64,000 nucleotides of DNA from an uncultured delta proteobacterium (GTDB lineage: Bacteria; Desulfobacterota; Desulfobacteria; Desulfobacterales; B30-G6): NCBI GenBank assembly GCA_963848165.1, contig CAWKCS010000025.1, forward strand, positions 28,151 to 92,150, read 5' to 3'. The stretch's first letter is position 1. The number at the start of each line of letters is the position of its first letter. Below the pieces are notes generated by a model. It saw only the letters and a list, made by a program, of their open reading frames with translations, searched no databases and was not told the origin of the DNA. The translations under genes were made by a program, and so were the position numbers. Below, piece by piece: positions 25,059-37,153 of the stretch.

Positions 25059-25636
25059 CATTTCTTATTATTTGACGAATCTATCAAGCAAGAAATCTTC
25101 GACATTCCTTCTTGAATCAATAGATGAAGTTATCCAGATGCCTCCTGGCACTCGTCTGCCCAAGCAAATAACTCAGGAGTGCCGCCGGTATGCCAGAAAA
25201 ACACCGTGTGGTTTTTTGTAAAATAGCCCTTTTGGATCAGGTCCAGAAACCCGCCCATGGCCCGCGCTGTGTACACCGGTCCCAAAAGGATCCCTTCATG
25301 AAGTGAGAGATCTCAAATAGCATCGAATTCCAGATCCCCAGGCATAGCATACCCTGCCCCCAGATAGTCACAATTAAGAGAAAAATCCGATTCCGTCATC
25401 CGGATGGCAGACCCGATTCTTTCAGCCGTGGCATTGGCAATCTTGGCCAGAACTGGAGCAAATGGTTCATCGCCGGTTATTTTTTGATCAATGCTGATGC
25501 CAAGAACCTGACCCTTAAAGTTTATGATCTTTGCTCCTAATGTCAGACCGGCCTGGGTCCCTCCGGAGCTTGTTGCAAAAACGATTGCATCCAGCTGGAT
25601 GTGCATGTCTTTCAACTGGGTTTCAAGTTCTAGCAT
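25059..25636 (-). pseudogene. Duplicated 3' fragment of the dcyD-like gene plus its downstream flank
   Basis: 578 bp are collinear with 36084-36661 (constant offset 11025, about 4 mismatches seen). One mismatch turns AGA into a TGA stop at 25313-25315. The fragment begins at codons MLELETQLKDMHIQ… of the intact gene. Confidence 0.85.
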
Positions 25637-26081
25637 GTCGCGCGTTACCTGATAACTTGTCCTGTTTTCAAAACGACATAGCGTTGATGAACTGGCAAGA
25701 TCACGATCTCGCTCAACTGCTGTCTGAATCGCCTTGTCTTTACGCAACGTTTGATGGTCGTTCAAATCCTCATAGCCCAAGGCAATGCCATAGATTCTCT
25801 GGCGGAGCATAGGCAGCAATGGATGGCGGACTTTGCCCTTGCAGCGGGTATCTTCAAATAATTCTGCCACGCGTGCAGTGAGATTCAGTCTTTTGTCAAC
25901 TTCTCTTAAAAGCATAACACCGCCATCTGATGTGATGTCGCCTCCAGTAAATTCGGCTTCAATTTTTCGCCTTTTGAACCTTGCATATTCTACTTTGGGT
26001 ATGGTACAAACTGTCATGGCAAAACCTTCTTTGTTTATCATTCTAATCAACTGATATATAACATAATAAAGAAGGTTTTGC
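25637..26081 (-). mobile_element. IS1380-family (IS4-like DDE) transposase N-terminal fragment with 5' hairpin
   Basis: MTVCTIPKVEYARFKRRKIEAEFTGGDITSDGGVMLLREVDKRLNLT…LGYEDLNDHQTLRKD…STLCRFENR resembles IS1380-type transposase N-termini. It is fused in frame at 25636/25637 to the dcyD fragment (single ORF 25313..26050). Only ~130 of the expected ~450 aa are present. Confidence 0.65.
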
Positions 26082-26259: not shown

Positions 26260-26796
26260 GTGTTCGAGATGAAAACGATAATTCTGGTCAGACACGCCAA
26301 ATCAAGCTGGAAAGATCTCAGTCTGGACGACTTTGACAGACCTTTGAACAAGAGAGGTAAAAAGAATGCACAATTTATGGGGGGGAAACTAAAAGAGCGA
26401 CAAATTATGCCTGACCTGGTTCTGTCAAGTCCTGCTAAAAGGGCCAGAAAAACAGCCACAGCTTTTGCCAAAGCCATCGGTTATCCCAAAAAAAAGATTG
26501 TCTTTGACGACAATATGTATCATGCTAGTTCAAGATACCTAATTGAGATAATTAGAAATATTGATGATAAACATGAAACAATCATGCTTTTTGGACATAA
26601 CCCTGATTTGAATGGCTTGGCCAATATATTGCTTAATAAAAATCCGGTTGATAACATTGTTACCACTGGCGTATACTGTATCAAAGTTAATGTGAATCAA
26701 TGGCAAAACATGCGTGAATGGAAAGGCGAATCCGTCTTTTACGATTATCCAAAGCGATACCAGGTGGATACTAAACATTTTATGGATCAAAGTTAA
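26260..26796 (+). CDS. sixA: SixA-like phosphohistidine phosphatase (histidine phosphatase superfamily)
   Basis: MKTIILVRHAKSSW… (RHA catalytic motif) …LSSPAKRARKTA… …LFGHNPDL. The likely start is the ATG at 26272. Confidence 0.8.
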   Translation: MFEMKTIILVRHAKSSWKDLSLDDFDRPLNKRGKKNAQFMGGKLKERQIMPDLVLSSPAKRARKTATAFAKAIGYPKKKIVFDDNMYHASSRYLIEIIRNIDDKHETIMLFGHNPDLNGLANILLNKNPVDNIVTTGVYCIKVNVNQWQNMREWKGESVFYDYPKRYQVDTKHFMDQS

Positions 26797-26799
26797 GGA

Positions 26800-28359
26800 A
26801 TGTGCGATCATTTAAAATTCAGCTTGCCTGACGCGTACATCCAGCAGCGGCTGACCGGCGCATTGGCTGATCATTATGTGATCAAAAAAGAGCGAGCCGT
26901 TCTCAAGCGCATGGCGATTTACGATACGTTTGATTGGCGTTTGTTTAATAAATCATTTGTTTTGTACACTTCCGAAAACAAACTCTTTTTACGCAGACTG
27001 TTCAAAAACGCCATTATTCACAGTGCCGCAATTACCTCGCCACCTGTTTTTGTATGGGATTTCCCCGACAGTGAATTAAAACAAAAGCTATCACCGGTTT
27101 TAAACGTGCGCGCGCTTTTAAAACTTATTGAGCTACATTCCCGATTAGCAGCTCATCGCATTTTAAACCAGGATGAAAAAACAGTGGCCCGCTTGATCTA
27201 CGAGGAAATTAGGCCTGTACAAGGAAAAAACGCCCCGGTTTTGGCAAAATATTTGTGGTTGCAACCGGTTAAGGGGTACACAAAGGCCTGCCAAAACATC
27301 ACCAAATACTTGGAAGAAGTCGGATTTACAGCTCTTAAAAAAGAAGACATCTACTTTAAAGCGATGGATGCAGCCGGCAAAAGTCCGGGCAGTTATTCTT
27401 CAAAATTGAAAATACAGCTCGACCCTGCCATGCGTTCTGATGAAGCCACTAAAATCATTTTACGTTATTTGCTACAAATAATGAAGATCAATGAAGCCAA
27501 CCTTAAGAAGGACCTGGATACGGAATTTTTACATGATTTTCGAGTCGCAACTCGGCGCACCCGCTCTGCTTTGGGTCAAATAAAATCCGTGTTTCCGAAA
27601 CATATAGCCGGCCGATTTAAAAAAGAGTTCGCTTTTGTGGGCAAACTCTCCAACCAGTTGCGCGACCTAGACGTCTACCTCCTCAAGGAGAAGGCCTTTA
27701 AAGCGATTCTCCCACCCGTCTTGCGCGATGACATTGCCCCCCTGTTTGACTATTTGCGAAAAAATCGATCAAAGGCTCTGCAAAAAGTTATCCGTGGTTT
27801 AAATTCTAAAAAATATGTACGGATCATGCAGAATTGGGAATTCTTCCTGGATGAACCCGTTCAGGATCCGCCAGCGGCATCCAATGCTAATGTGCCCATT
27901 ATTACCTTGGCGCGAAAAAGAATCTATAAGAAATACCGGAGCATCGTAAAAGTCGGTAGCCAGATCCTTGAGAACACCGAGGACGAGAAATTGCATGCAC
28001 TGCGAATTGAATGCAAAAAATTGCGGTATCTGATGGAGTTTTTCTACAGTCTGTTTCCACGCAAAAAAATCAATATATTGATTGCCCAATTAAAGATATT
28101 GCAAGACAATTTAGGGGATTTTAATGACCTGTGTGTTCAGGAACAATACCTGCTGAACATTGCCGAGGAGCTGCCCGCAACCCATCGGATATCTAAAAAG
28201 ACACAGGTGGCAATTGGCAGTCTGATCGGAACGTTGGATAAGGAAAAGCAGATCATTAAAGATGCATTTGCCAAAACGTTTACAGACTATGCATCGTCTT
28301 CGAATAAAAGAGCATTTAGTAAACTTTTCGCCTCAAAGCAGAAAGAGACGGTTCCATGA
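26800..28359 (+). CDS. CHAD domain protein with N-terminal CYTH-like region
   Basis: 519 aa. The C-terminal half shows CHAD hallmarks (…LHDFRVATRRTRSAL… …LRDLDVYL… …LHALRIECKKLRYLMEFF…). The N-terminal ~200 aa have the size and position of the CYTH-like domain that often precedes CHAD, which is less certain. The start is 3 nt after the sixA stop. Confidence 0.8.
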   Translation: MCDHLKFSLPDAYIQQRLTGALADHYVIKKERAVLKRMAIYDTFDWRLFNKSFVLYTSENKLFLRRLFKNAIIHSAAITSPPVFVWDFPDSELKQKLSPVLNVRALLKLIELHSRLAAHRILNQDEKTVARLIYEEIRPVQGKNAPVLAKYLWLQPVKGYTKACQNITKYLEEVGFTALKKEDIYFKAMDAAGKSPGSYSSKLKIQLDPAMRSDEATKIILRYLLQIMKINEANLKKDLDTEFLHDFRVATRRTRSALGQIKSVFPKHIAGRFKKEFAFVGKLSNQLRDLDVYLLKEKAFKAILPPVLRDDIAPLFDYLRKNRSKALQKVIRGLNSKKYVRIMQNWEFFLDEPVQDPPAASNANVPIITLARKRIYKKYRSIVKVGSQILENTEDEKLHALRIECKKLRYLMEFFYSLFPRKKINILIAQLKILQDNLGDFNDLCVQEQYLLNIAEELPATHRISKKTQVAIGSLIGTLDKEKQIIKDAFAKTFTDYASSSNKRAFSKLFASKQKETVP

Positions 28360-29114
28360 CAACCTTGGCACTATACAGTAATAAAGGGGGCGTGGGCAAA
28401 ACTACGACAGCAGTAAACCTGTCCTATTTGGCTGCGCAGGCAGGTGCTAGAACCCTGATCTGTGACCTAGACCCCCAAAGCTCCGCAACCTATTATTTTC
28501 GGATTAAACCTAAACTGAAGTTCGGTGCAAAGAGGTTCATTAAAGGTGGCGAGCAGATAAAAAAAAGCATTAAAGGCACTGATTATGAAAATTTGGATCT
28601 GCTGCCGGCCGATTTCACCCTTCGAAAGTTAGATGCCGTTTTTGGCAAATTGAACCGCCCCAAAGAGCGGTTGAATAAATTTCTAAAACCGCTTAAGGCT
28701 GAATATGATCTGGTCATTTTGGACTGTCCGGTCACAATCAGCATCCTGGCCGAAAATATTTTCAATGCTGTTGATTTCATCCTCGTTCCGCTCATTCCAA
28801 CAACGCTTTCTGTTAGAACCTATAAACAATTACTGTCATTTTGCAGAAAGAATAAATATGATGCAGGTAAAATTTACGCCTTTTTTTCCATGGTCGACAG
28901 ACGCAAAAGAATGCACAAAGAACTCATGGCGATGATGTTGAAGGAATTTAATGGCGTGCTGCGAAGCCTTATTCCATATTTATCGCAGATCGAAAGAATG
29001 GGAATTGAGCGGGAGCCGGTTGCGGTTTCTGCACCGGGTTCAGTGGCTTCAAAAGCATATCAAAACCTGTGGACAAAATTCCAGGAAGCCGCTTTTGCGA
29101 ACCCGAACAATTGA
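28356..29114 (+). CDS. ParA/Soj-family (deviant Walker A) ATPase, orphan
   Basis: 252 aa (MTTLALYSNKGGVGKTTTAVNLSYLAA…LICDLDPQSSAT… …LVILDCP…). The ATG overlaps the CHAD stop (ATGA at 28356-28359). No parB is nearby. Confidence 0.9.
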   Translation: MTTLALYSNKGGVGKTTTAVNLSYLAAQAGARTLICDLDPQSSATYYFRIKPKLKFGAKRFIKGGEQIKKSIKGTDYENLDLLPADFTLRKLDAVFGKLNRPKERLNKFLKPLKAEYDLVILDCPVTISILAENIFNAVDFILVPLIPTTLSVRTYKQLLSFCRKNKYDAGKIYAFFSMVDRRKRMHKELMAMMLKEFNGVLRSLIPYLSQIERMGIEREPVAVSAPGSVASKAYQNLWTKFQEAAFANPNN

Positions 29115-29224
29115 ACCCGGATTTGAGAAACTCCTGACATCTGAAACAGGATCCTCGAATTCCGATGATAAGTAATGCATGACTGCCGTTAACCAAAAGC
29201 CATGAATTACATCCACGTGCAACT

Positions 29225-31418
29225 ATGTGCCGGTTAACGAACGTTCCGGCCGGGAAAAAAAGCATGGGAAAAGCAAAAACAAATACGGTAAAACCTGGTA
29301 AAATCGATACGGATTCGCCAAATGCGCTCATCAACCGTGAGTTAAGTTGGCTCAGCTTTGCACGCCGTGTGCTCGCGCTCGCGGAGGATCCCGAATTACC
29401 CCTGCTGGAGCGTGTCAAGTTTGCCGGCATCATGGGCATGCTGTTTGACGAGTTCGCGATGAAACGCATGGGGGGGCTCAAACGCAAGATTGAGAAACGG
29501 AAACGGAAAAAGAAGCTATCCCCCGACGGGCTCAGCCCGGAAGAGGAATTGCAAGCCTGCCGGAACGAATTGCATAAACAAACCCGACGTGTTTCCAGGC
29601 TGATGAGTCATAAGCTTGGCCCCGCTTTGTCAAAGGCCGGAATTCCCATCCTGGAATATAAGGAGTTGAACGATCAACAGCAGTCGCATTTGCAGCACTA
29701 TTTCCTTGAATCGGTGGAACCCATTCTGACACCGCTTGCCGTAGATGTTTCACATCCGTTTCCCTTCATCAGTAACCTGGGGTTAAACATAGCGGTGGAA
29801 GTCAAGGAAACTAAGAAGAAACGCAATCGCTTCGTGCGGATCAAAGTACCGGCAAACCGCCCGCGCTGGGTGCCTCTGCCCGATGGCGCCGGTTATGTGC
29901 CTCTGGAGCAGGTGATCGAGGCGAACCTTAAACTTCTGTTTCCCAGGGCAGCCGGTTTGAAGTGCTATTTTTTTCGCGTAACTCGCGTCGCCAAGGATGA
30001 CCCGTGGGAACGGACATACCTTGAAGGCCCAGGAACCGATCATATTCCAGGTCGCCTGATCGGTATGGTCACGGAAGAACTGACTGCCCGAAAGTTTGCC
30101 GGCGTGATACGACTCCAGGTGAGTTCTAACATGCCCAAAAAACGTCAACGCTGGATCGCCGAACAGCTCAAGGCAGATCTAAAAGATCTGGAACCCACGA
30201 AAGGTCTGCTGAGTCTTTCGGATTTAATGAAGTTCCAGGTGGGAGGTTACTCGAAACTGCGCGATCCTCACCATGAGCCCGTAACCCATCCTCGCCTGGT
30301 CCACCTGGATCCCCTCGACTCTGCAGATATTTTCGACGAGATTCGCCGAGGGGACATCCTGTTGCATCATCCTTACCACAGCTTCGACGGCTCAATATTG
30401 CATTTCCTGCAATGTGCAGCAGTTGACCCGCATGTGCTGGCAATCAAGCTGACCATTTACCGCACCAGCAGCGAGTCACCGATCATTATAGCGTTGATGA
30501 ATGCAGCGCGCCAGGGCAAGCAGGTAGCCGTGCTGGTGGAGATTACCGCACGCTTCGACGAGGCCCCCAACATCGCATGGGGCCGGCAGCTTGGAGCAAG
30601 TTGGCGTACACGTCGCCTATGGCGTGGAGCGTCTTAAAACCCACGTCAAATTGGCTCTCGTCGTCCGTGAAGAGAAGAACGGCATTCGCCGCTATTTCCA
30701 CGTGGGCACCGGAAACTACCACGAAGGCACAGCCCGAATTTATGAGGACATGGGCATTCTCAGTTGCGACAGGGAACTGGGTGCTAATGTCGCAACTGTG
30801 TTCAACGAACTAACGGGGGCCACTCCGGCTCAAAGCTATGGAAAATTATTGGTCGCCCCCCACAATCTGCGCGAGCACTTTACCGAATTGATCCGGCGCG
30901 AGGCCCGGCTCAGTCAGTCAGGCCGTTCTTCTGGCATTCGCGCCAAAATGAACCAACTTCAGGACGCGCTCATGATTCGCGAACTTTACCTCGCCAGCCA
31001 GGCGGGTGTGCCCATCAGTCTGAATATCCGCGGCTTATGCTGCCTGCGTGCGGGGGTTCCCGGATTGTCCGATACAATTCGGGTTTTCAGTACACTGGGG
31101 CGCTTTTTAGAACATTCACGCATCTATCGTTTCGAAAACGGGGGTGACCCTGAATTTTTTATTGGTTCGGCCGACTGGATGCAGCGTAATCTCAACCGTC
31201 GTGTGGAAACCATAACGCCCGTTTCCGACCCGACACTGAAACAGGAATTAGAGCAGACCTTACAGGTTTACGAAAACGATAACTGCTCGGCCTGGGATAT
31301 GCGACCTGACGGCCGTTATATTCGGCGGCGTCCGGCCAAAGGCGAAAAGCGCCGCGCCGCTCAAGAAGTATTCATCGAGCTTGCCGAGCATCAATCAAAG
31401 AATAAGGGCAAGGTCTAA
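29225..31418 (+). pseudogene. ppk: polyphosphate kinase 1, split by a 1-nt frame change near 30590 (pseudogene or sequence error)
   Basis: ORF 29225..30637 carries …LINRELSWLSFARRVLALAEDPELPLLERVKF… through …VAVLVEITARFDEAPNIAWGRQL. ORF 30591..31418 continues as EQVGVHVAYGVERLKTHVKLALVVREE…HVGTGNYH… The likely true start is the ATG at 29264. The gene is clearly more GC-rich than its neighbours. Confidence 0.9.
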
Positions 31419-31472
31419 TATAGGCATGGAGCCTCTTCCGGAATATAAAATTTGTGATTTGACGAGGCACTG

Positions 31473-31592
31473 ATGGCTTTGGAAATCGAAAGAAAATTCT
31501 TGGTTAAGGAAGGTAAATTGCTCGATAAATTTCGTGAAACGTTGGGGATAGAGAGTATAAGGCCGGAAGGAGATGATAATGAAACAGGATGA
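31473..31592 (+). pseudogene. CYTH-domain N-terminal remnant (39 codons)
   Basis: MALEIERKFLVKEGKLLDKF… matches the characteristic EIERKFLV start of CYTH/triphosphate tunnel enzymes. It stops after 39 codons and overlaps the next ORF. Confidence 0.5.
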
Positions 31593-31839
31593 TCTTACCA
31601 AAATAAAACATATTGGTCTCAATCGCATGAGATTGTTCAACGACCTTGGCATCAAAACAATAAAGCAACTGCGAGAAATGCCGCTGGAAAAACTGGCCGG
31701 GATTAAATCGATCGGCACCCATTATGCCAAGCTGATCAAAAATTCTGTTGCCGAATATGATAGGGTAAAACACGAAAAATTGTCTGACCAGACCGCAGCG
31801 GCCAAAGAAGGAAAGCCCCGGAGAGCACTCGGGATTTAA
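31573..31839 (+). CDS. helix-hairpin-helix motif protein (small; possibly truncated by a frame change)
   Basis: 88 aa (…DLTKIKHIGLNRMRLFNDLGIKTIKQLREMPLEKLAGIKSIG…), two HhH-like motifs. GGAAGGAG precedes the ATG at 31579. An open frame continues in another frame to 32003. Confidence 0.55.
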   Translation: MIMKQDDLTKIKHIGLNRMRLFNDLGIKTIKQLREMPLEKLAGIKSIGTHYAKLIKNSVAEYDRVKHEKLSDQTAAAKEGKPRRALGI

Positions 31840-32075
31840 AGAAAAGAGTTAAAAGACTTCACAAGAATTTAAACCGGGTGAACGAAAATCTAAAACCCTT
31901 GTGGCAAAAAAAGTATCTGGAATTGTATATTGATTTTAAAAAGCAATTCAGGAAATTCAATCATTTTCCAGATTGCTGCGGGATTTTATTTCCTGAATGT
32001 TGACGACGGCCACTTTCGCCAATTCATAGATAATGCATCCCGATTGCACAACTGCAGTTACGGCTTCTAAAATTC

Positions 32076-32798
32076 ATGAAAAAAATACTTGTACTGGGTG
32101 ATATTCATGCAAATTATCCGGCATTGCAAGCGATATGGGGCTATGTCCGGAAATACCGGTTCGATCGGATCATTAACACGGGCGATTTAACCGTATACAG
32201 CACTTTCCCCAATGAAACGATCCAATGGCTCCGCAAGAGAAAGAAATCTGTCTCTATATTGGGGAATACGGACCGAAGGGTATTAAGAATCTTAAAAGGC
32301 AAAAAATTGAAAAGACCCAAGAAAGAAGAAAAACGGGTCATGTATTATTGGACATCGGAAAACCTGCTTCCGGAAAATGCAGTGTATTTGAAGTCTTTAC
32401 CCGGACAAATCGATCTGACCATTGGCAATATCCGTATTGGTGTGTTCCATGGAACTTGCGATGACGAGGCTGAAACTCTGTTTCCAAGCGCCCCTGAAAG
32501 CCGCTTTCGCGAGCTGGCAGCGGGCTCTCCCTTTCAGATTCATATCATGGGTCATTCTCATACACCCTATCATAAAATAATCGACGGGGTTCATTTTATC
32601 AATCCGGGGAGTGTGGGACGAATGTTCGATGGAGATCCGCGAACGGCTTTTGCAATTCTCAAGCTCTCTTCAGGAAAGATAGCCGTTAAGCATTTCCGCA
32701 TCCCCTATCCGGTGGAAGCGGTGATTCAAGGGCTGAAACAAAACCGTCTGCCGGATATCTATGAAAAAATGTTCCGCATGGGGAGGAAACTAAATTAA
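32076..32798 (+). CDS. metallophosphoesterase (calcineurin-like, YfcE/MJ0936-type)
   Basis: 240 aa with the motifs LGDIHAN, GDL, GNTD, HGT, GHSHTPY and NPGSVG. Confidence 0.85.
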   Translation: MKKILVLGDIHANYPALQAIWGYVRKYRFDRIINTGDLTVYSTFPNETIQWLRKRKKSVSILGNTDRRVLRILKGKKLKRPKKEEKRVMYYWTSENLLPENAVYLKSLPGQIDLTIGNIRIGVFHGTCDDEAETLFPSAPESRFRELAAGSPFQIHIMGHSHTPYHKIIDGVHFINPGSVGRMFDGDPRTAFAILKLSSGKIAVKHFRIPYPVEAVIQGLKQNRLPDIYEKMFRMGRKLN

Positions 32799-33297: not shown

Positions 33298-34152
33298 TTA
33301 TCCGGGCAATTCATCGCCCGTCATGAGATGATCTTCCATGAATCTGATTTCATCAATGCCCGATATCACGATCTCAGGATCTATCAGGAGTTCTTCCGGG
33401 GGGACTTTGCCTTTATAATCGACTTTGGACAGAATATGTTTGATACAGTTGAGTCGTGCCTTTTTCTTGTTGTCGGATCGGATAATCGTCCAGGGAGAAA
33501 TGGTTCGGTTGGTTTCATTGAGCATCTGAAACTTTCTTAGGGTGTAATCATCCCACCTTTCCTGTGCCTCTCTGTCCACCGGAGAGATTTTATACTGTTT
33601 CAACGGGCTCGTCTCTCTCCCAATAAACCGGCGCAGCTGCTCCTTCTTGGAAACAGAGAAAAAGAACTTGAATAAAACAATTCCGTTCTTTACCAGCATT
33701 GATTCAAGCATCGGTACATCTTTCAAAAAACGCTTATTCTCTTCATCCGTGCAGAAACCCATTGTCGGTTCAACCATGGCGCGGTTGTACCAGCTGCGGT
33801 CGAATAGGACAATTTCTCCGGCGGACGGGAGGTGTTGGATATATCTTTGGAAATACCATTCGGTGCGTTCCCTGTCGCTGGGCTTTAAAAGGGCGACAAC
33901 CCGGGCGCCCCGTGGATTCAAATGTTCGACAATCCTCTTGATCGTGCCTCCTTTTCCGGCGGCATCCCGCCCTTCAAACAACATCAAGACGCGTTCCTCG
34001 TTGGCAATGACATGCTTTTGCCATTTCAAAAGTTCGATCTGCAGCTTGTTCAGCCCCTCTTCGTATTCGAGGGTGAATTTTTTTACCCAAATCGCCTTCC
34101 GTCCTTTTGATTTTTTCTTATTAACATTTTTAAAGCTGGTGTGTTCGGTCAA
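33298..34152 (-). CDS. ppk2: polyphosphate kinase 2 (PPK2 family), copy A
   Basis: …VLMLFEGRDAAGKGGTIKRIVEHLNPRGARVVAL… …FDRSWYNRAMVEPTMGFC… are PPK2 Walker A and lid motifs. The ORF-track start is a TTG. Confidence 0.9.
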   Translation of the reverse strand: MTEHTSFKNVNKKKSKGRKAIWVKKFTLEYEEGLNKLQIELLKWQKHVIANEERVLMLFEGRDAAGKGGTIKRIVEHLNPRGARVVALLKPSDRERTEWYFQRYIQHLPSAGEIVLFDRSWYNRAMVEPTMGFCTDEENKRFLKDVPMLESMLVKNGIVLFKFFFSVSKKEQLRRFIGRETSPLKQYKISPVDREAQERWDDYTLRKFQMLNETNRTISPWTIIRSDNKKKARLNCIKHILSKVDYKGKVPPEELLIDPEIVISGIDEIRFMEDHLMTGDELPG

Positions 34153-34298
34153 TTTCTTCTTTTTCTTTTTTCTTTTTTCTTGCCTTCTTCCTTTGCTTTC
34201 CTATCGGCCTTAGAAGTCTTTTCCGCGGATTTCACTGCAGCTTTAGACTCTACGCCTTTAGCTTTCTTTTTGTTTTTTTCCGCCTTTTCTTTAGCCAT
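34149..34298 (-). CDS. Lys-rich 49-codon ORF, either a separate mini-protein or the frame-shifted N-terminal tail of PPK2 copy A
   Basis: My translation is MAKEKAEKNKKKAKGVESKAAVKSAEKTSKADRKAKEEGKKKEKRKRRN*. The ATG at 34298-34296 is preceded by AAAGGGGA. The stop TGA (34151-34149) overlaps the PPK2 TTG start (34152-34150) by 2 nt inside an A-rich run. Confidence 0.45.
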   Translation of the reverse strand: MAKEKAEKNKKKAKGVESKAAVKSAEKTSKADRKAKEEGKKKEKRKRRN

Positions 34299-34351
34299 CT
34301 AATCCCCTTTTTCTTATATAACATCCATTCAGGTTTGAAAATATTCAGAAA

Positions 34352-35326
34352 TCATATCATTGATCTGCCGTATTTTTTTCGCTGCGTTTTCATTTCCTTC
34401 AATTCTTTGTTCCCAGGTATTACAATCGTTGGGTCCAAGGCTAAATCGAGTTTTCGGCTTCTGCCTTTATATCGCACTGAATTGAGAATCAGCTTCATGG
34501 TTTCCCTTCGGGCCAGATGCTTATTGTCGGATCGAATCACCCACCATGGCGATTTTTTCGTGTGAGTTTTTTTCAACAACATGAGCTTCTTTTCAGTGAA
34601 TTCATCCCACAGTTCCTGGGCCTGCAAGTCCACCTCGGAAAGTTTCCATTGTCGAAGCGGGTCGTTTTTTCTGCGATCAAATCGCCTTTTCTGCTCCTCC
34701 TTGGTTACTGAAAAGTAGAGTTTAATCAATATGGTCTTGCCGGCATCTTCGAGAAAATTTTGTTCGTAAGTAATGACCTTCTTCATGAAACGCCTATATT
34801 GCGCCTTAGTACAAAACCCCATCACCGGTTCGACCAAAGCCCGGTTGTACCAGCTTCTGTCAAATAAAACGATCTCTCCGGCATGTGGGAATTGTTCGAT
34901 ATACCGCTTGATATGGAGTTCTGTTTTTTGCTGCTCGCTCGGTTTGCCCAAGGCGACGACCCGATATCTTTTTGTATTCATATACCGGATAATTCGTCGA
35001 ATCGTCCCACCTTTGCCGGAGGCGTCCCGGCCGTCAAAAAGAATGACCATCTTTTTACCGGTATTTTCCAGATGGCGTTGTAGCTTGATGAGTTCCGCCT
35101 GATACGGTTTCAACTCCTCTGAACGGTAATGTTTTTCCAATGCCTCCTTGATGATTTCTTCTTTTTCTTTCTTTTGGGAAAGCTTCGGGATCTTTAGAAC
35201 CGGCTTTTTAGAATCGACGGATTTGATTTTCGAATCGACTTTTTTCACGATTCCTTTCCCCGGTGCGTTCAAATCGCCGGCTCTTTTTTCCGATTCTTTT
35301 TGCTTGTCTTTCTCCTCAGTTTTCAT
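34352..35326 (-). CDS. ppk2: polyphosphate kinase 2 (PPK2 family), copy B, with Lys-rich N-terminal extension
   Basis: …MVILFDGRDASGKGGTIRRIIRYMNTKRYRVVAL… …FDRSWYNRALVEPVMGFC…. The likely start is MKTEEKDKQKE at 35326; the ORF-track ORF extends to 35404. Confidence 0.9.
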   Translation of the reverse strand: MKTEEKDKQKESEKRAGDLNAPGKGIVKKVDSKIKSVDSKKPVLKIPKLSQKKEKEEIIKEALEKHYRSEELKPYQAELIKLQRHLENTGKKMVILFDGRDASGKGGTIRRIIRYMNTKRYRVVALGKPSEQQKTELHIKRYIEQFPHAGEIVLFDRSWYNRALVEPVMGFCTKAQYRRFMKKVITYEQNFLEDAGKTILIKLYFSVTKEEQKRRFDRRKNDPLRQWKLSEVDLQAQELWDEFTEKKLMLLKKTHTKKSPWWVIRSDNKHLARRETMKLILNSVRYKGRSRKLDLALDPTIVIPGNKELKEMKTQRKKYGRSMI

Positions 35327-35420
35327 AGTTGATCCCAGACGTATCGTTTTCAATATCTTTATTGAAATATTTTGCAGCCCCGTAACCAAAGGCCGTGGCC
35401 TCAATTCGGGGCTGCATGGT

Positions 35421-35573
35421 CTTTTTTATTTCTTTTTCTTTTTTCCCTTTTTCTTCGCTTTTTTCTTTTCTTTCTTTTTCTCTACCTTTTTCTTTTCTTT
35501 CTTTTTCTTTTTTCCCTTTTTCTCCGCCTTATTCTTTTCTTTCTTTTTTTCCTTTTTATCTTTCTTTTTCTCT
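35421..35573. repeat. Polypyrimidine/polypurine mirror-like tract with an internal 69-nt-period repeat
   Basis: On the + strand about 153 nt contain only ~6 purines. ctttttcttttttccctttttct occurs at 35432-35454 and again at 35501-35523. Confidence 0.85.
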
Positions 35574-35653
35574 GCTGTTACCCCTTCGCCTTTTTTTTCT
35601 TCTTTGGCTTCCTCTTCGGGTTTAGCTTTTTCGAGCTTTTTTTCTTTTGCCAT
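35426..35653 (-). CDS. 75-aa extremely Lys/Glu-rich protein (histone-H1/AlgP-like composition)
   Basis: MAKEKKLEKAKPEEEAKEEKKGEGVTAEKKKDKKEKKKEKNKAEKKGKKKKKEKKKVEKKKEKKKAKKKGKKKKK. AAGGAGAG lies 5 nt upstream of the ATG. There is no recognisable domain. Confidence 0.55.
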   Translation of the reverse strand: MAKEKKLEKAKPEEEAKEEKKGEGVTAEKKKDKKEKKKEKNKAEKKGKKKKKEKKKVEKKKEKKKAKKKGKKKKK

Positions 35654-35802
35654 GGGACTCTCCTTTCTTTAAAGTTTTCAATTCCTCATAGTTTGCTGTG
35701 GAATTAGAAAATATTGAGATTGGCTGTTTTATCGAGATTGATAAAGCATGTCTCTTAGGAAACTAAAAACCGGATTTACTTTATATAGCTAAAGAAATTC
35801 TA

Positions 35803-35964
35803 CTATAATGACACGGGTTTGTGCAACCACTTTTTCTTGTCAGCCACCCTGCCGCATTTTTTACATACAAATTTCGGATCACTAACTATCGTTATATATT
35901 TATCAAATTTTTCGGATATTTCATCTTCCTTCCACTTGCACAGACGTTTTTCCTTTTTAGCCAT
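35803..35964 (-). CDS. 53-aa hypothetical protein with CxxC motif
   Basis: The likely start is MAKKEKRLCKWKEDEISEKFDKYITIVSDPKFVCKKCGRVADKKKWLHKPVSL, with the ATG at 35964 preceded by GGAAGAGGGAGAA. The ORF-track ORF extends to 36063. Function is unknown. Confidence 0.45.
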   Translation of the reverse strand: MAKKEKRLCKWKEDEISEKFDKYITIVSDPKFVCKKCGRVADKKKWLHKPVSL

Positions 35965-36154
35965 GGTGTTCTCCCTCTTCCGAAATGAATTCAAGAATTT
36001 CATGAAATCCGGATCGTTTTTACGTTGGGATATAGGGACGTATATCAGATCATAAGATTCCATAAAGTTCCAGCAAATGTTGGCATTTCTTATTATTTGA
36101 CGAATCTATCAAGCAAGATATCTTCGACATTCCTTCTTGAATCAATAGATGAAG

Positions 36155-37153
36155 TTATCCAGATGCCTCCTGGCACTCGTCTGCCCAAGCAAATAACTCA
36201 GGAGTGCCGCCGGTATGCCAGAACAACACCGTGTGGTTTTTTGTAAAATAGCCCTTTTGAATCAGGTCCAGAAACCCGCCCATGGCCCGCGCTGTGTACA
36301 CCGGTCCCAAAAGGATCCCTTCATGAAGTGAGAGATCTCTAATAGCATCGAATTCCAGATCCCCAGGCATAGCATACCCTGCCCCCAGATAGTCACAATT
36401 AAGAGAAAAATCCGATTCCGTCATCCGGATGGCAGACCCGATTCTTTCAGCCGTGGCATTGGCAATCTTGGCCAGAACTGGAGCAAATGGTTCATCGCCG
36501 GTTATTTTTTGATCAATGCTGATGCCAAGAACCTGACCCTTAAAGTTTATGATCTTTGCTCCTAATGTCAGACCGGCCTGGGTCCCTCCGGAGCTTGTTG
36601 CAAAAACGATTGCATCCAGCTGGATGTGCATGTCTTTCAACTGGGTTTCAAGTTCTAGCATAGCATTGACATATCCAGCAGACCCTATGCTGTTAGATCC
36701 ACCAACAGGTATTACATAGGGTTTCTTTCCGGCAGCTGCAAGATCTTCAGCAACCTGGTTTAACCTACTATCCCTGTCTTTTCTATCACAGTAATGTATA
36801 TTGGCCCCAAATATTCTATCCAGTAAAAGGTTACCATTAAGGCTCTCCGGCTTTATCCCGTTTAAGACCAAATGGCATGACAGGCCCGCTTTTCTTGCTG
36901 CAGCTGCTGTCAGGCGGCAGTGGTTGGACTGTAGTCCCCCGGCGGTAACCAACGTGTCTTTATCCTGTTTCAGGGCTTCACCAATGAGAAATTCAAGCTT
37001 CCGGGTTTTATTTCCACCCATACCAAGGGAAGTTATATCATCCCTTTTCATAAATATTTCAGGGCCATTGCAGGCATGTGAAAATGATTCAAGCGTATGA
37101 ATCGGCGTTGGGAATTCAGCCAGATGAAACCGGGGCAACGTTTCTAAAATCAT
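36155..37153 (-). CDS. dcyD: D-cysteine desulfhydrase / ACC-deaminase family PLP enzyme
   Basis: 332 aa (…FPTPIHTLE… …KRDDITSLGMGGNKTRKLEFLIGEAL… …GGLQSNHCR…), typical of this family. Confidence 0.8.
   Translation of the reverse strand: MILETLPRFHLAEFPTPIHTLESFSHACNGPEIFMKRDDITSLGMGGNKTRKLEFLIGEALKQDKDTLVTAGGLQSNHCRLTAAAARKAGLSCHLVLNGIKPESLNGNLLLDRIFGANIHYCDRKDRDSRLNQVAEDLAAAGKKPYVIPVGGSNSIGSAGYVNAMLELETQLKDMHIQLDAIVFATSSGGTQAGLTLGAKIINFKGQVLGISIDQKITGDEPFAPVLAKIANATAERIGSAIRMTESDFSLNCDYLGAGYAMPGDLEFDAIRDLSLHEGILLGPVYTARAMGGFLDLIQKGYFTKNHTVLFWHTGGTPELFAWADECQEASG

Follow-up and report, generated by a model that had tools for sequence, protein, structure and literature searches.

A CHAD protein and a ParA-type ATPase form a conserved gene pair: a candidate ATP-driven machine for polyphosphate granules

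The stretch of DNA analysed here (64,000 nucleotides, hereafter the window) belongs to contig CAWKCS010000025.1 of an uncultured delta proteobacterium of the Desulfobacterales. In a chromosomal setting, with tuf, nusG, rplA and rpoB at 12–21.5 kb, it carries a block of polyphosphate (polyP) genes of ~9.8 kb (26.24–36.0 kb) that is syntenic by blastn with four related loci (L001, L002, L003 and L081); the closest homologues come from uncultured Thermodesulfobacteriota, Desulfobacterales or Desulfosarcina. The block encodes, in this order, a SixA-like histidine phosphatase, a CHAD protein, a ParA-type ATPase, ppk1, what is left of a CYTH gene, a helix-hairpin-helix (HhH) protein, a metallophosphoesterase and, on the minus strand, two PPK2 proteins, followed by two Lys-rich genes. 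At its heart lie the genes for the 519-aa CHAD protein (26800–28359, + strand; Pfam CHAD at residues 221–451, E = 7.5e-52) and the 252-aa ParA/MinD-type ATPase (28356–29114, + strand; AAA_31 with E = 1e-35, CbiA, and the motif YSNKGGVGKTT). Open reading frame (ORF) calls and Pfam agree with the original prediction, made from the sequence alone, that the SixA-like, CHAD and ParA frames are collinear on the plus strand, and the two tight junctions that it described are indeed present: 3 nt separate the sixA stop from the CHAD ATG, and the CHAD stop overlaps the parA start in the tetranucleotide ATGA at 28356–28359.

The window ParA scored 123.7 bits against Pfam AAA_31 (cut-off 27) and 58 bits against CbiA (cut-off 25). 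Its deviant Walker A motif (S8-N-K10-GGVGK15-T, with K10 and K15 conserved to at least 95% across 63 members of the family), Walker A' motif (C36-DLDPQ) and Walker B motif (L122-DCP; the latter two likewise at least 95% conserved in the 63 members) are all intact, from which we infer that the protein works as an ATP-dependent dimerising switch. ParA proteins of the family measure 245–260 aa throughout and carry no N-terminal extension. The nearest solved structures are 8RAY (E = 4.6e-19), HpSoj and TtSoj; McdA (6NON, E = 1.2e-9) and MinD (1e-8) also match. The protein nevertheless falls under every curated NCBIfam cut-off for partition, MinD and BcsQ proteins: it scored 87.4 bits against ParA_partition (NF041546, cut-off 180), 70 bits against BcsQ (cut-off 158) and 50.5 bits against MinD (TIGR01968, cut-off 212.9), and it lies far under the cut-offs for RepA, SopA and PrgP. 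A library of 1.84 billion representatives held 30,759 ParA-like sequences at E <= 1e-3 and 384 at E <= 1e-30, so that the family amounts to ~384 clusters as counted at 50% identity. Judged by this E-value census, the NCBIfam scores and an identity gap described next, the window ParA belongs to a discrete clade.

We surveyed the gene neighbourhood of ParA, with one genome per species, in at least 80 loci: 63 family loci, defined by at least 42% identity to the window ParA, and 17 outgroup loci with at most 35%, separated by a clean gap. Six-frame ORFs around each ParA gene were searched with the window proteins and the gene junctions were measured; locus L084, whose contig begins at the ParA gene, was left out of the neighbourhood evidence. 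In a second survey, full-length CHAD proteins were searched against metagenome contigs, yielding relatives of 38–86% identity, and loci with enough downstream sequence were evaluated. Both surveys are samples rather than censuses, and all counts given here refer to loci among the matches listed. A CHAD gene adjoins ParA in 62 of the 63 family loci, the single exception being L054, and in none of the 17 outgroup loci. It lies upstream on the same strand in 58 family loci, 30 of which show the 4-nt CHAD/ParA overlap and four a 1-nt overlap, most others having a gap of less than 30 nt; the order is ParA then CHAD in three loci (Binatia, Entotheonella), and CHAD is on the opposite strand in one. 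The adjacency noticed in the window is thus conserved well beyond its genome, across at least 12 phyla: the carriers include Desulfobacterota, Poribacteria, Chloroflexota, Dadabacteria, Binatia, Entotheonella, Chlorobiota, Calditrichota, Bacteroidota, Kiritimatiellota, Actinomycetota and Acidobacteriota, as well as alpha-, beta- and gammaproteobacteria, Nitrosomonas europaea among them.

When the neighbour ORFs of the 63 loci were clustered all against all, ParA and CHAD emerged as the sole universal genes; the next families were either generic (ABC ATPase, response regulators) or PPK1 and PPK2, these two in ~9–13 loci each. Pairwise identities of ParA and CHAD are correlated (Pearson r = 0.87, 1596 pairs), with ParA evolving more slowly than its neighbour (mean identity 51% vs 32%). 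Viewed from the CHAD side, a family ParA follows directly downstream in 54 of 66 metagenomic loci and lies upstream in three more. ParA without CHAD is therefore essentially never found, while CHAD without ParA is possible, as far as these loci tell. We consider functional coupling of the two proteins, as an obligate module on polyP, well supported by these comparisons, which portray CHAD–ParA as a conserved and presumably co-translated two-protein module. One CHAD subclade (L112, L115, L116, L117, L120 and L147; 51–58% identity) lacks ParA, retains the N-terminal domain and is accompanied by genes for SixA-like, PPK2 and metallophosphoesterase proteins; its members represent natural ParA-minus controls. 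One Entotheonella locus (L013, 10848–13064), in which ParA precedes CHAD, encodes a fusion of the CHAD protein with a SixA-like histidine phosphatase.

The resemblance to ParA/Soj structures, together with a 578-bp repeat and a transposase fragment that flank the block (see below), would suit an ordinary DNA-partition ParA that maintains a plasmid, chromosome or island and merely sits next to polyP genes. This explanation is effectively refuted. The window block contains no ParB-like gene and there is no third universal neighbour across the 63 loci; the search for parS-like sites in the window returned one match with three mismatches, against 1.4 expected by chance. The earlier statement that neither parB nor parS-like repeats lie nearby thus holds. 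CHAD linkage separates family from outgroup loci, the ParA_partition cut-off is missed by a wide margin, and the family is rare on plasmids: 4,597 of the 72,556 plasmids searched had a ParA match, all at less than 60% identity, and ~8 reached family level (at least 41%), these being Paracoccus and Halomonas megaplasmids or chromids. In the two plasmid loci inspected, H2 and H6, ParA is again paired with CHAD. Akin to the type Ib ParA of ParABS systems (Soj/Spo0J), the protein has the same fold class, a length of ~250 aa, no N-terminal helix-turn-helix, a deviant Walker A motif and a basic residue at the position of Soj R189; it differs in having no ParB/parS, a Gln at the equivalent of R218, an obligate CHAD neighbour and a score under the NCBIfam cut-off. 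With the identity gap, the lack of parB, the NCBIfam scores and the near-absence from plasmids, ParA is placed outside the chromosome and plasmid partition clades, in keeping with its original description as an orphan.

We then turned to the partner. The C-terminal part of the CHAD protein (27460–28359, + strand), comprising the CHAD domain and C-terminal helices, is a polyP-binding module by Pfam (177 bits, cut-off 25.6), by matches to the Protein Data Bank (PDB) and by model superposition. Residues 198–510 match the structures of Chlorobium tepidum CtCHAD (3E0S, 6QV7 and the polyP-bound 6QVA) with E = 1e-58, and the model of the CHAD domain superimposes on 6QV7/6QVA with template modelling (TM) scores of 0.92–0.93 and a root-mean-square deviation of ~2 Å. 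Mutation of H253, R256, R260 and R296 abolishes polyP binding by CtCHAD (PMC6537752). These residues correspond to H245, R248, R252 and R288 of the window protein, which are invariant in 57 of 57 ParA-linked partners. Localisation to polyP granules in vivo has been reported for other CHAD proteins (PMC13556221, PMC6537752). CtCHAD itself is 64% identical to the CHAD protein encoded upstream of a family ParA in a Chlorobiaceae locus (L037), and the crystallised protein therefore belongs to the ParA-linked group. Full-length CtCHAD (Q8KE09, 522 aa) thus shares with the window protein an orthologous CHAD domain, the same polyP-binding residues and a length of ~520 aa with an N-terminal extension; the difference is that the crystal construct, and the studies based on it, covered the CHAD domain (residues 208–522) and not the N-terminal domain or the neighbouring ParA.

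That N-terminal domain (residues 1–205; 26800–27414, + strand) proved harder to classify. Pfam CYTH matched none of 57 members, a profile of 30 N-terminal domains gave chance matches only when compared with PDB sequences, and hhalign against one CYTH sequence returned a probability of 0.2. In an AlphaFold2 model of the whole protein, built from a shallow alignment (at least 64% identity), residues 1–201 had predicted local distance difference test (pLDDT) values under 50. Modelled by itself from a more varied alignment, for which fragments from the N-domain profile search were suitable rows, the domain reached a pLDDT of 86.5. The 39 best Foldseek matches of this model (E < 0.005) are all triphosphate tunnel metalloenzyme (TTM)/CYTH proteins or the structurally related Mediator subunits Med18/20, and include 3BHD, 5A60 and 5A5Y, with ThTPase (3BHD), YgiF (5A60), AtTTM3 and SaTTM among the proteins matched (probability 1.0, TM scores 0.45–0.56). 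The domain lacks the ExExK motif and begins MCDHLKFSL, in a strand that shows no family-wide conservation; D42, F44, R104, K127, G159 and Y160 are conserved. We read it as a catalytically dead TTM/CYTH-like module, CYTH-like by the modelled fold alone. Of the assignments made at the outset, profile searches thus confirmed CHAD and ParA, while the CYTH-like N-terminal domain escaped Pfam and rests on resemblance at the level of the fold. A TTM fold followed by CHAD also characterises Escherichia coli YgiF, a CYTH-CHAD short-chain polyphosphatase; its TTM domain, however, is catalytic, has ExExK and is seen by Pfam CYTH, and it has no ParA partner, whereas the domain described here is without ExExK and invisible to Pfam. 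The proposal that the CHAD protein serves as adaptor has gained support from universal adjacency, translational coupling, the correlated divergence of the two proteins and the retained polyP-binding residues.

CYTH domains recur on the ParA side. A CYTH gene of the catalytic type (EIERKF...) lies directly 3' of ParA in 23 of the 63 family loci and in none of the 17 outgroup loci. The N. europaea copy, whose start overlaps the stop of ParA, is NE1496/NeuTTM (PDB 2FBL and 3TYP, E = 2.7e-99), which encodes a characterised inorganic triphosphatase. ParA::CYTH fusions make up at least seven protein clusters among the best 150 representatives; two fusion loci have a CHAD gene of ~520 aa directly upstream, accompanied in one of them by genes for PPK2, a Na/Pi cotransporter and a SixA-like protein. 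Because ParA is recurrently fused to CYTH domains, we propose the TTM-like domain of the CHAD protein as the module that probably contacts ParA. Family ParA is also found fused to a HAD domain of the sucrose-6-phosphate-phosphatase (S6PP) type, in a Bacteroidota metagenome-assembled genome (MAG; L033, 9992–11674) and in P0324; only a CHAD remnant precedes the fusion in L033. In the RefSeq annotation of its complete genome, Paracoccus marcusii CP157 carries pstB-phoU-phoB and, further on, CHAD, an AAA family ATPase, CYTH, NUDIX and CYTH. On the 158-kb replicon pCP157_03 (L085), this CHAD-ParA-CYTH-NUDIX-CYTH operon lies just 3' of pstB-phoU-phoB, a position that hints at Pho-regulon control of the operon. 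Linkage to other polyP genes varies: ppk1 is found within 10 kb of the pair in ~13 of the 63 family loci and a SixA-like gene near it in ~14. We therefore rejected ppk1 as part of the core module; its linkage does not define the system.

Neither the recurrent CYTH gene nor the ParA::CYTH fusions had been foreseen in the original prediction, and they open the main rival reading, in which ParA is an enzyme or coat switch instead of a spacing motor. The template is MinD (MinD-MinC/MinD-MinE), which dimerises in an ATP-dependent manner, brings an effector to a surface and is set free by a partner; a difference is that no membrane-targeting helix, minC or minE is evident here. ParA would dock on the CHAD coat and recruit or activate phosphohydrolases of the CYTH, HAD or SixA type, or control the coat; it would thereby govern polyP turnover or the size or number of granules, with no nucleoid gradients involved. 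The CYTH gene directly 3' of ParA (including NeuTTM), the independent ParA::CYTH fusion clusters, the one ParA::S6PP fusion type, a neighbourhood rich in NUDIX, SixA-like, metallophosphoesterase and PPK genes, and a non-basic residue at the equivalent of Soj R218 are all consistent with such a switch. Most loci, however, have no CYTH gene (that of the window is deleted) while CHAD–ParA is constant; no enzyme is universal in the neighbourhood; and all characterised small ParA proteins with these motifs are reported to position a cargo. We therefore regard the switch as possible, if rather doubtful.

Among possible ATP-driven machines for the placement or control of polyP granules, ParA paired with CHAD is the strongest candidate to date. 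That the pair has granule positioning as its output, in a manner like McdAB or ParABS, is to us an even bet by analogy with those systems. The fuller reading that we favour, in which CHAD–ParA with an optional CYTH protein forms a widespread, dedicated ATP-driven system for the spacing and segregation of polyP granules in at least 12 phyla, has in our estimate a probability of roughly 0.45. In such a system, the CHAD domain would coat or bind polyP, as demonstrated for its orthologue CtCHAD, and the ATP-bound ParA dimer would bind a matrix of polyanionic nature, for which the nucleoid is the likeliest choice. Once on the granule, the CHAD protein would contact ParA, probably through its dead TTM/CYTH-like domain, and stimulate ATP hydrolysis, such that granules might climb self-generated ParA gradients and be spaced and inherited as carboxysomes are by McdA/McdB. 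The CYTH triphosphatase (stand-alone or fused), SixA-like protein, PPK1, PPK2 and metallophosphoesterase would then be products of variable accessory genes of the polyP locus.

McdA/McdB is the closest parallel to this proposal. Both systems pair a small orphan ParA-type ATPase with a cargo-binding partner encoded beside it in the gene cluster of the cargo, without parB or parS; the signature lysine (K10) is present in the window ParA, and both would operate as two-protein Brownian ratchets on the nucleoid. The differences are that the cargo here would be an inorganic polyP granule, the window block having no carboxysome genes; that the partner is a folded TTM-like and CHAD protein of ~520 aa, whereas McdB is small and disordered or coiled-coil; that the partner gene comes first and overlaps the ATPase gene by 4 nt; and that the window ParA is less similar to McdA (6NON) than to Soj.

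Several observations weigh against the positioning system. Work by Hester and Lutkenhaus in 2007 reportedly identified R189 and R218 of Bacillus subtilis Soj as surface arginines for non-specific DNA binding. In an alignment to TtSoj (1WCV), R183/K184 of the window ParA occupy the position of R189 and K184 is at least 95% conserved, but Q211 occupies that of R218, a site that is not conserved as basic; binding of ParA to the nucleoid is accordingly uncertain. Moreover, ~17% of close CHAD relatives have no ParA and still have polyP genes, and ParA is therefore dispensable for whatever CHAD does in these loci. The recurrent fusion of ParA to enzymes (CYTH, S6PP) and the enzyme-rich neighbourhood suit a switch equally well. 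In other species, published phosin deletions are cited as leaving granules almost unchanged (PMC13556221). Finally, the contacts of ParA with CHAD, with DNA and with polyP, hence also the choice of matrix, are ones that we infer.

The missing arginine bears on a further alternative, in which ParA uses polyP in place of DNA as its matrix and, by cycling on the surface of granules, keeps them from fusing or drives their fission. PolyP is a dense polyanion, the ParA family conserves a set of basic residues (R49, K55, K73, R90, K172, K184 and R219) while lacking one canonical DNA-binding arginine of Soj, and competition for polyP or DNA could come from several Lys-rich proteins encoded at the locus. 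We think this mode of action improbable, given that no ParA is known to bind polyP and that the CHAD partner already provides polyP binding.

How polyP granules are placed is an acknowledged question. Their positioning machinery and its ATP dependence are stated as unknown in papers from 2024–2026 (PMC13052382, PMC13556221, PMC11407121). A 2024 review of ParA/MinD proteins does not mention polyP granules, a 2025 review of organelle positioning lists AlgP alone for them and gives the ATP dependence as unknown, and a 2026 mBio paper describes the principles of polyP organisation as unresolved (PMC13556221). Two Acidithiobacillus papers draw a ppk-parA-CHAD cluster and label ParA a plasmid or chromosome partition protein, without a functional hypothesis (PMC10892726, PMC6416229). 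In line with the claim that no dedicated ParA system for polyP granules had been characterised, we found no characterised ParA/CHAD/CYTH system for them in the open-access literature, a report in a subscription journal remaining possible. The sole described determinants of storage-granule spacing are the nucleoid tethers of polyP and polyhydroxybutyrate granules, AlgP of Pseudomonas aeruginosa and PhaM, PhaF and PhaH, which bind granules and, through Lys-rich regions, DNA non-specifically. The locus described here also has Lys-rich and HhH proteins; it differs in that AlgP, PhaM, PhaF and PhaH involve no ATPase, whereas here the ATPase is conserved and the Lys-rich proteins are lineage-specific.

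CHAD–ParA thus offers a concrete gene pair for the question of polyP-granule placement and inheritance, and it occurs in culturable carriers (N. europaea, with NeuTTM as the following gene; the Chlorobium lineage of CtCHAD; P. marcusii) that come with solved component structures. If our reading is correct, the pair would represent the first case of active partition of an inorganic storage granule, and its cargo adaptor, which combines a folded, dead triphosphate-tunnel domain with a CHAD domain that binds polyP, would define a new class. The pair would likewise widen the range of cargoes handled by ParA/MinD systems and give a role to the unexplained N-terminal half of the crystallised CtCHAD protein, as well as to bacterial CYTH triphosphatases, which are poorly understood, with relevance for polyP-accumulating organisms in phosphorus removal and biomining.

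As regards the copy in the window, its closest relative found is L081, with 91.4% DNA identity across CHAD-parA-ppk1 (window 26757–31512) and, in a separate alignment, 91.0% for sixA. The CHAD–ParA core is intact. By contrast with what had been assumed, ppk1 (29225–31418, + strand; likely start ATG 29264) is not one gene: it consists of two ORFs in different frames with complementary PPK1 domains, 29225–30637 encoding the N and middle domains and half of C1, and 30591–31418 the rest of C1 and C2. Alignment with the intact 718-aa ppk1 of L081 attributes the +1 frameshift to one extra C at window position 30590. The ratios of non-synonymous to synonymous substitution rates (dN/dS) relative to L081 are 0.18 and 0.11 for the two ppk1 halves, 0.10 for ParA and 0.27 for CHAD; since both halves are still under purifying selection, the frameshift is either recent or an assembly error. 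Downstream of ppk1, a CYTH remnant of 14 codons (MALEIERKFLVKEG; 31473–31514, + strand; 92% identity over 13 aa by tblastn) stands where L001, L002, L003 and L081 have a full CYTH gene of ~153 aa. Homology to L001, L002 and L081 breaks off at 31512–31514, and the remainder of the gene is deleted.

The frameshifted ppk1, the deleted CYTH gene, a split HhH gene and the transposase fragment with its flanking repeat raise the prospect that the locus is decaying and non-functional in this genome, which would concern this copy and not the family. We judge this unlikely: CHAD and ParA are intact with low dN/dS, the ppk1 halves are under purifying selection, and related MAG loci show similar single-gene splits (CHAD in L004, the metallophosphoesterase in L001), a pattern typical of assembly indels.

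Among the accessory genes, the SixA-like histidine phosphatase (26260–26796, + strand; His_Phos_1, E = 9e-12) probably starts at ATG 26269; it is named SixA-like and not SixA because it scored 65.6 bits against TIGR00249, under the cut-off of 74.5. The YfcE-type metallophosphoesterase (32076–32798, + strand; Metallophos_2, E = 9e-21) scored 59.7 bits against TIGR00040 (cut-off 56.25). The HhH protein with a Lys-rich tail (31573–31950, + strand) was recognised from its synteny, by blastn, with L001, L003 and L081; the window has an ORF of 88 aa, beyond which the homology runs on in another frame. Its homologues in L001, L003, L004, L005 and L081 measure ~190–215 aa (192 aa in L081, with a weak HHH_5 match of 1.8e-4) and have a Lys-rich C-terminal tail, and the protein could be a tether to the nucleoid or to polyP. 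The first PPK2 gene (33298–34298, − strand; PPK2 body 33298–34152, E = 1.4e-96) has a Lys-rich leader, the 49-aa ORF MAKEK... (34149–34298, − strand), which overlaps the PPK2 start in another frame. The leader is out of frame across an A-rich run both in the window and in L001 (13126–14143), while the Lys-rich extension of L003 is in frame with PPK2; slippage on poly(A), during translation or transcription, could explain the change of frame, as could homopolymer errors. The second PPK2 gene (34352–35404, − strand; E = 7.9e-76) encodes a Lys-rich N-terminal extension.

Two further minus-strand genes encode a 75-aa, extremely Lys-rich protein (35426–35653; 23 K in 30 residues) and a 53-aa Lys-rich protein with a C..CxxC motif (35803–35964), neither of which has a Pfam or NCBIfam family match. 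Both are kept in position in L001 (15344–16103) and L003 (14654–15198), beside the PPK2 pair. The Lys-rich ORFs reported earlier at 34149–35964 thus exist, on the minus strand, but the suggestion that such mini-proteins act as a general adaptor was rejected, as they are lineage-specific, being kept in close Desulfobacterales relatives alone. A scan of the locus for promoters and terminators gave counts equal to those in shuffled sequence and was therefore uninformative on operon structure.

The block is enclosed entirely by two copies of a 578-bp direct repeat, detected by blastn comparison of the window with itself and 99.3% identical. The left copy (25059–25636), at the left edge of the block, holds the 3' part of a PALP-family gene; the right copy (36084–36661) lies inside an intact PALP gene (36155–37153, − strand). 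On the left, a chimeric ORF (25313–26050, − strand) joins an N-terminal fragment of a DDE_Tnp_1_4 transposase (Pfam E = 2.9e-39, profile positions 5–130 of 435) to a PALP fragment that matches the PALP gene at 36341–36829 by tblastn. This bracketing suggests relocation or duplication of the block mediated by an insertion sequence, or an assembly join induced by the repeat. The chimeric ORF lies 210 nt upstream of sixA; the assertion that no replicon or phage genes lie nearby, taken as an absence of mobile genes, was thus not quite right. The repeat, the CYTH remnant, the tandem PPK2 genes and the metallophosphoesterase had all been missing from the initial description of the locus.

A few lineage-specific features of the family were also recorded. 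An apparent natural CHAD–ParA fusion, P0425, was discounted, its linker reading as out-of-frame sequence and pointing to a frameshift or gene-call artefact, and the extensions of P0320 and P0333 were discounted on the same grounds. No conserved small ORF was found 3' of ParA across the 63 loci. Four Desulfobulbales-like loci encode, directly 3' of ParA, a peptide of ~33 aa, M(A/G)KKKK..CC(E/G)K(Y/F)KKKKG(K/E)RCxxCPK (L026, 10671–10895; L027, 10746–10868; L040, 2775–2915; L044, 10793–10909), which is a candidate lineage-specific third component. In an Alcaligenaceae locus (L017, 10801–11361), a DUF2058 protein is encoded directly 3' of ParA, in the place of CYTH.

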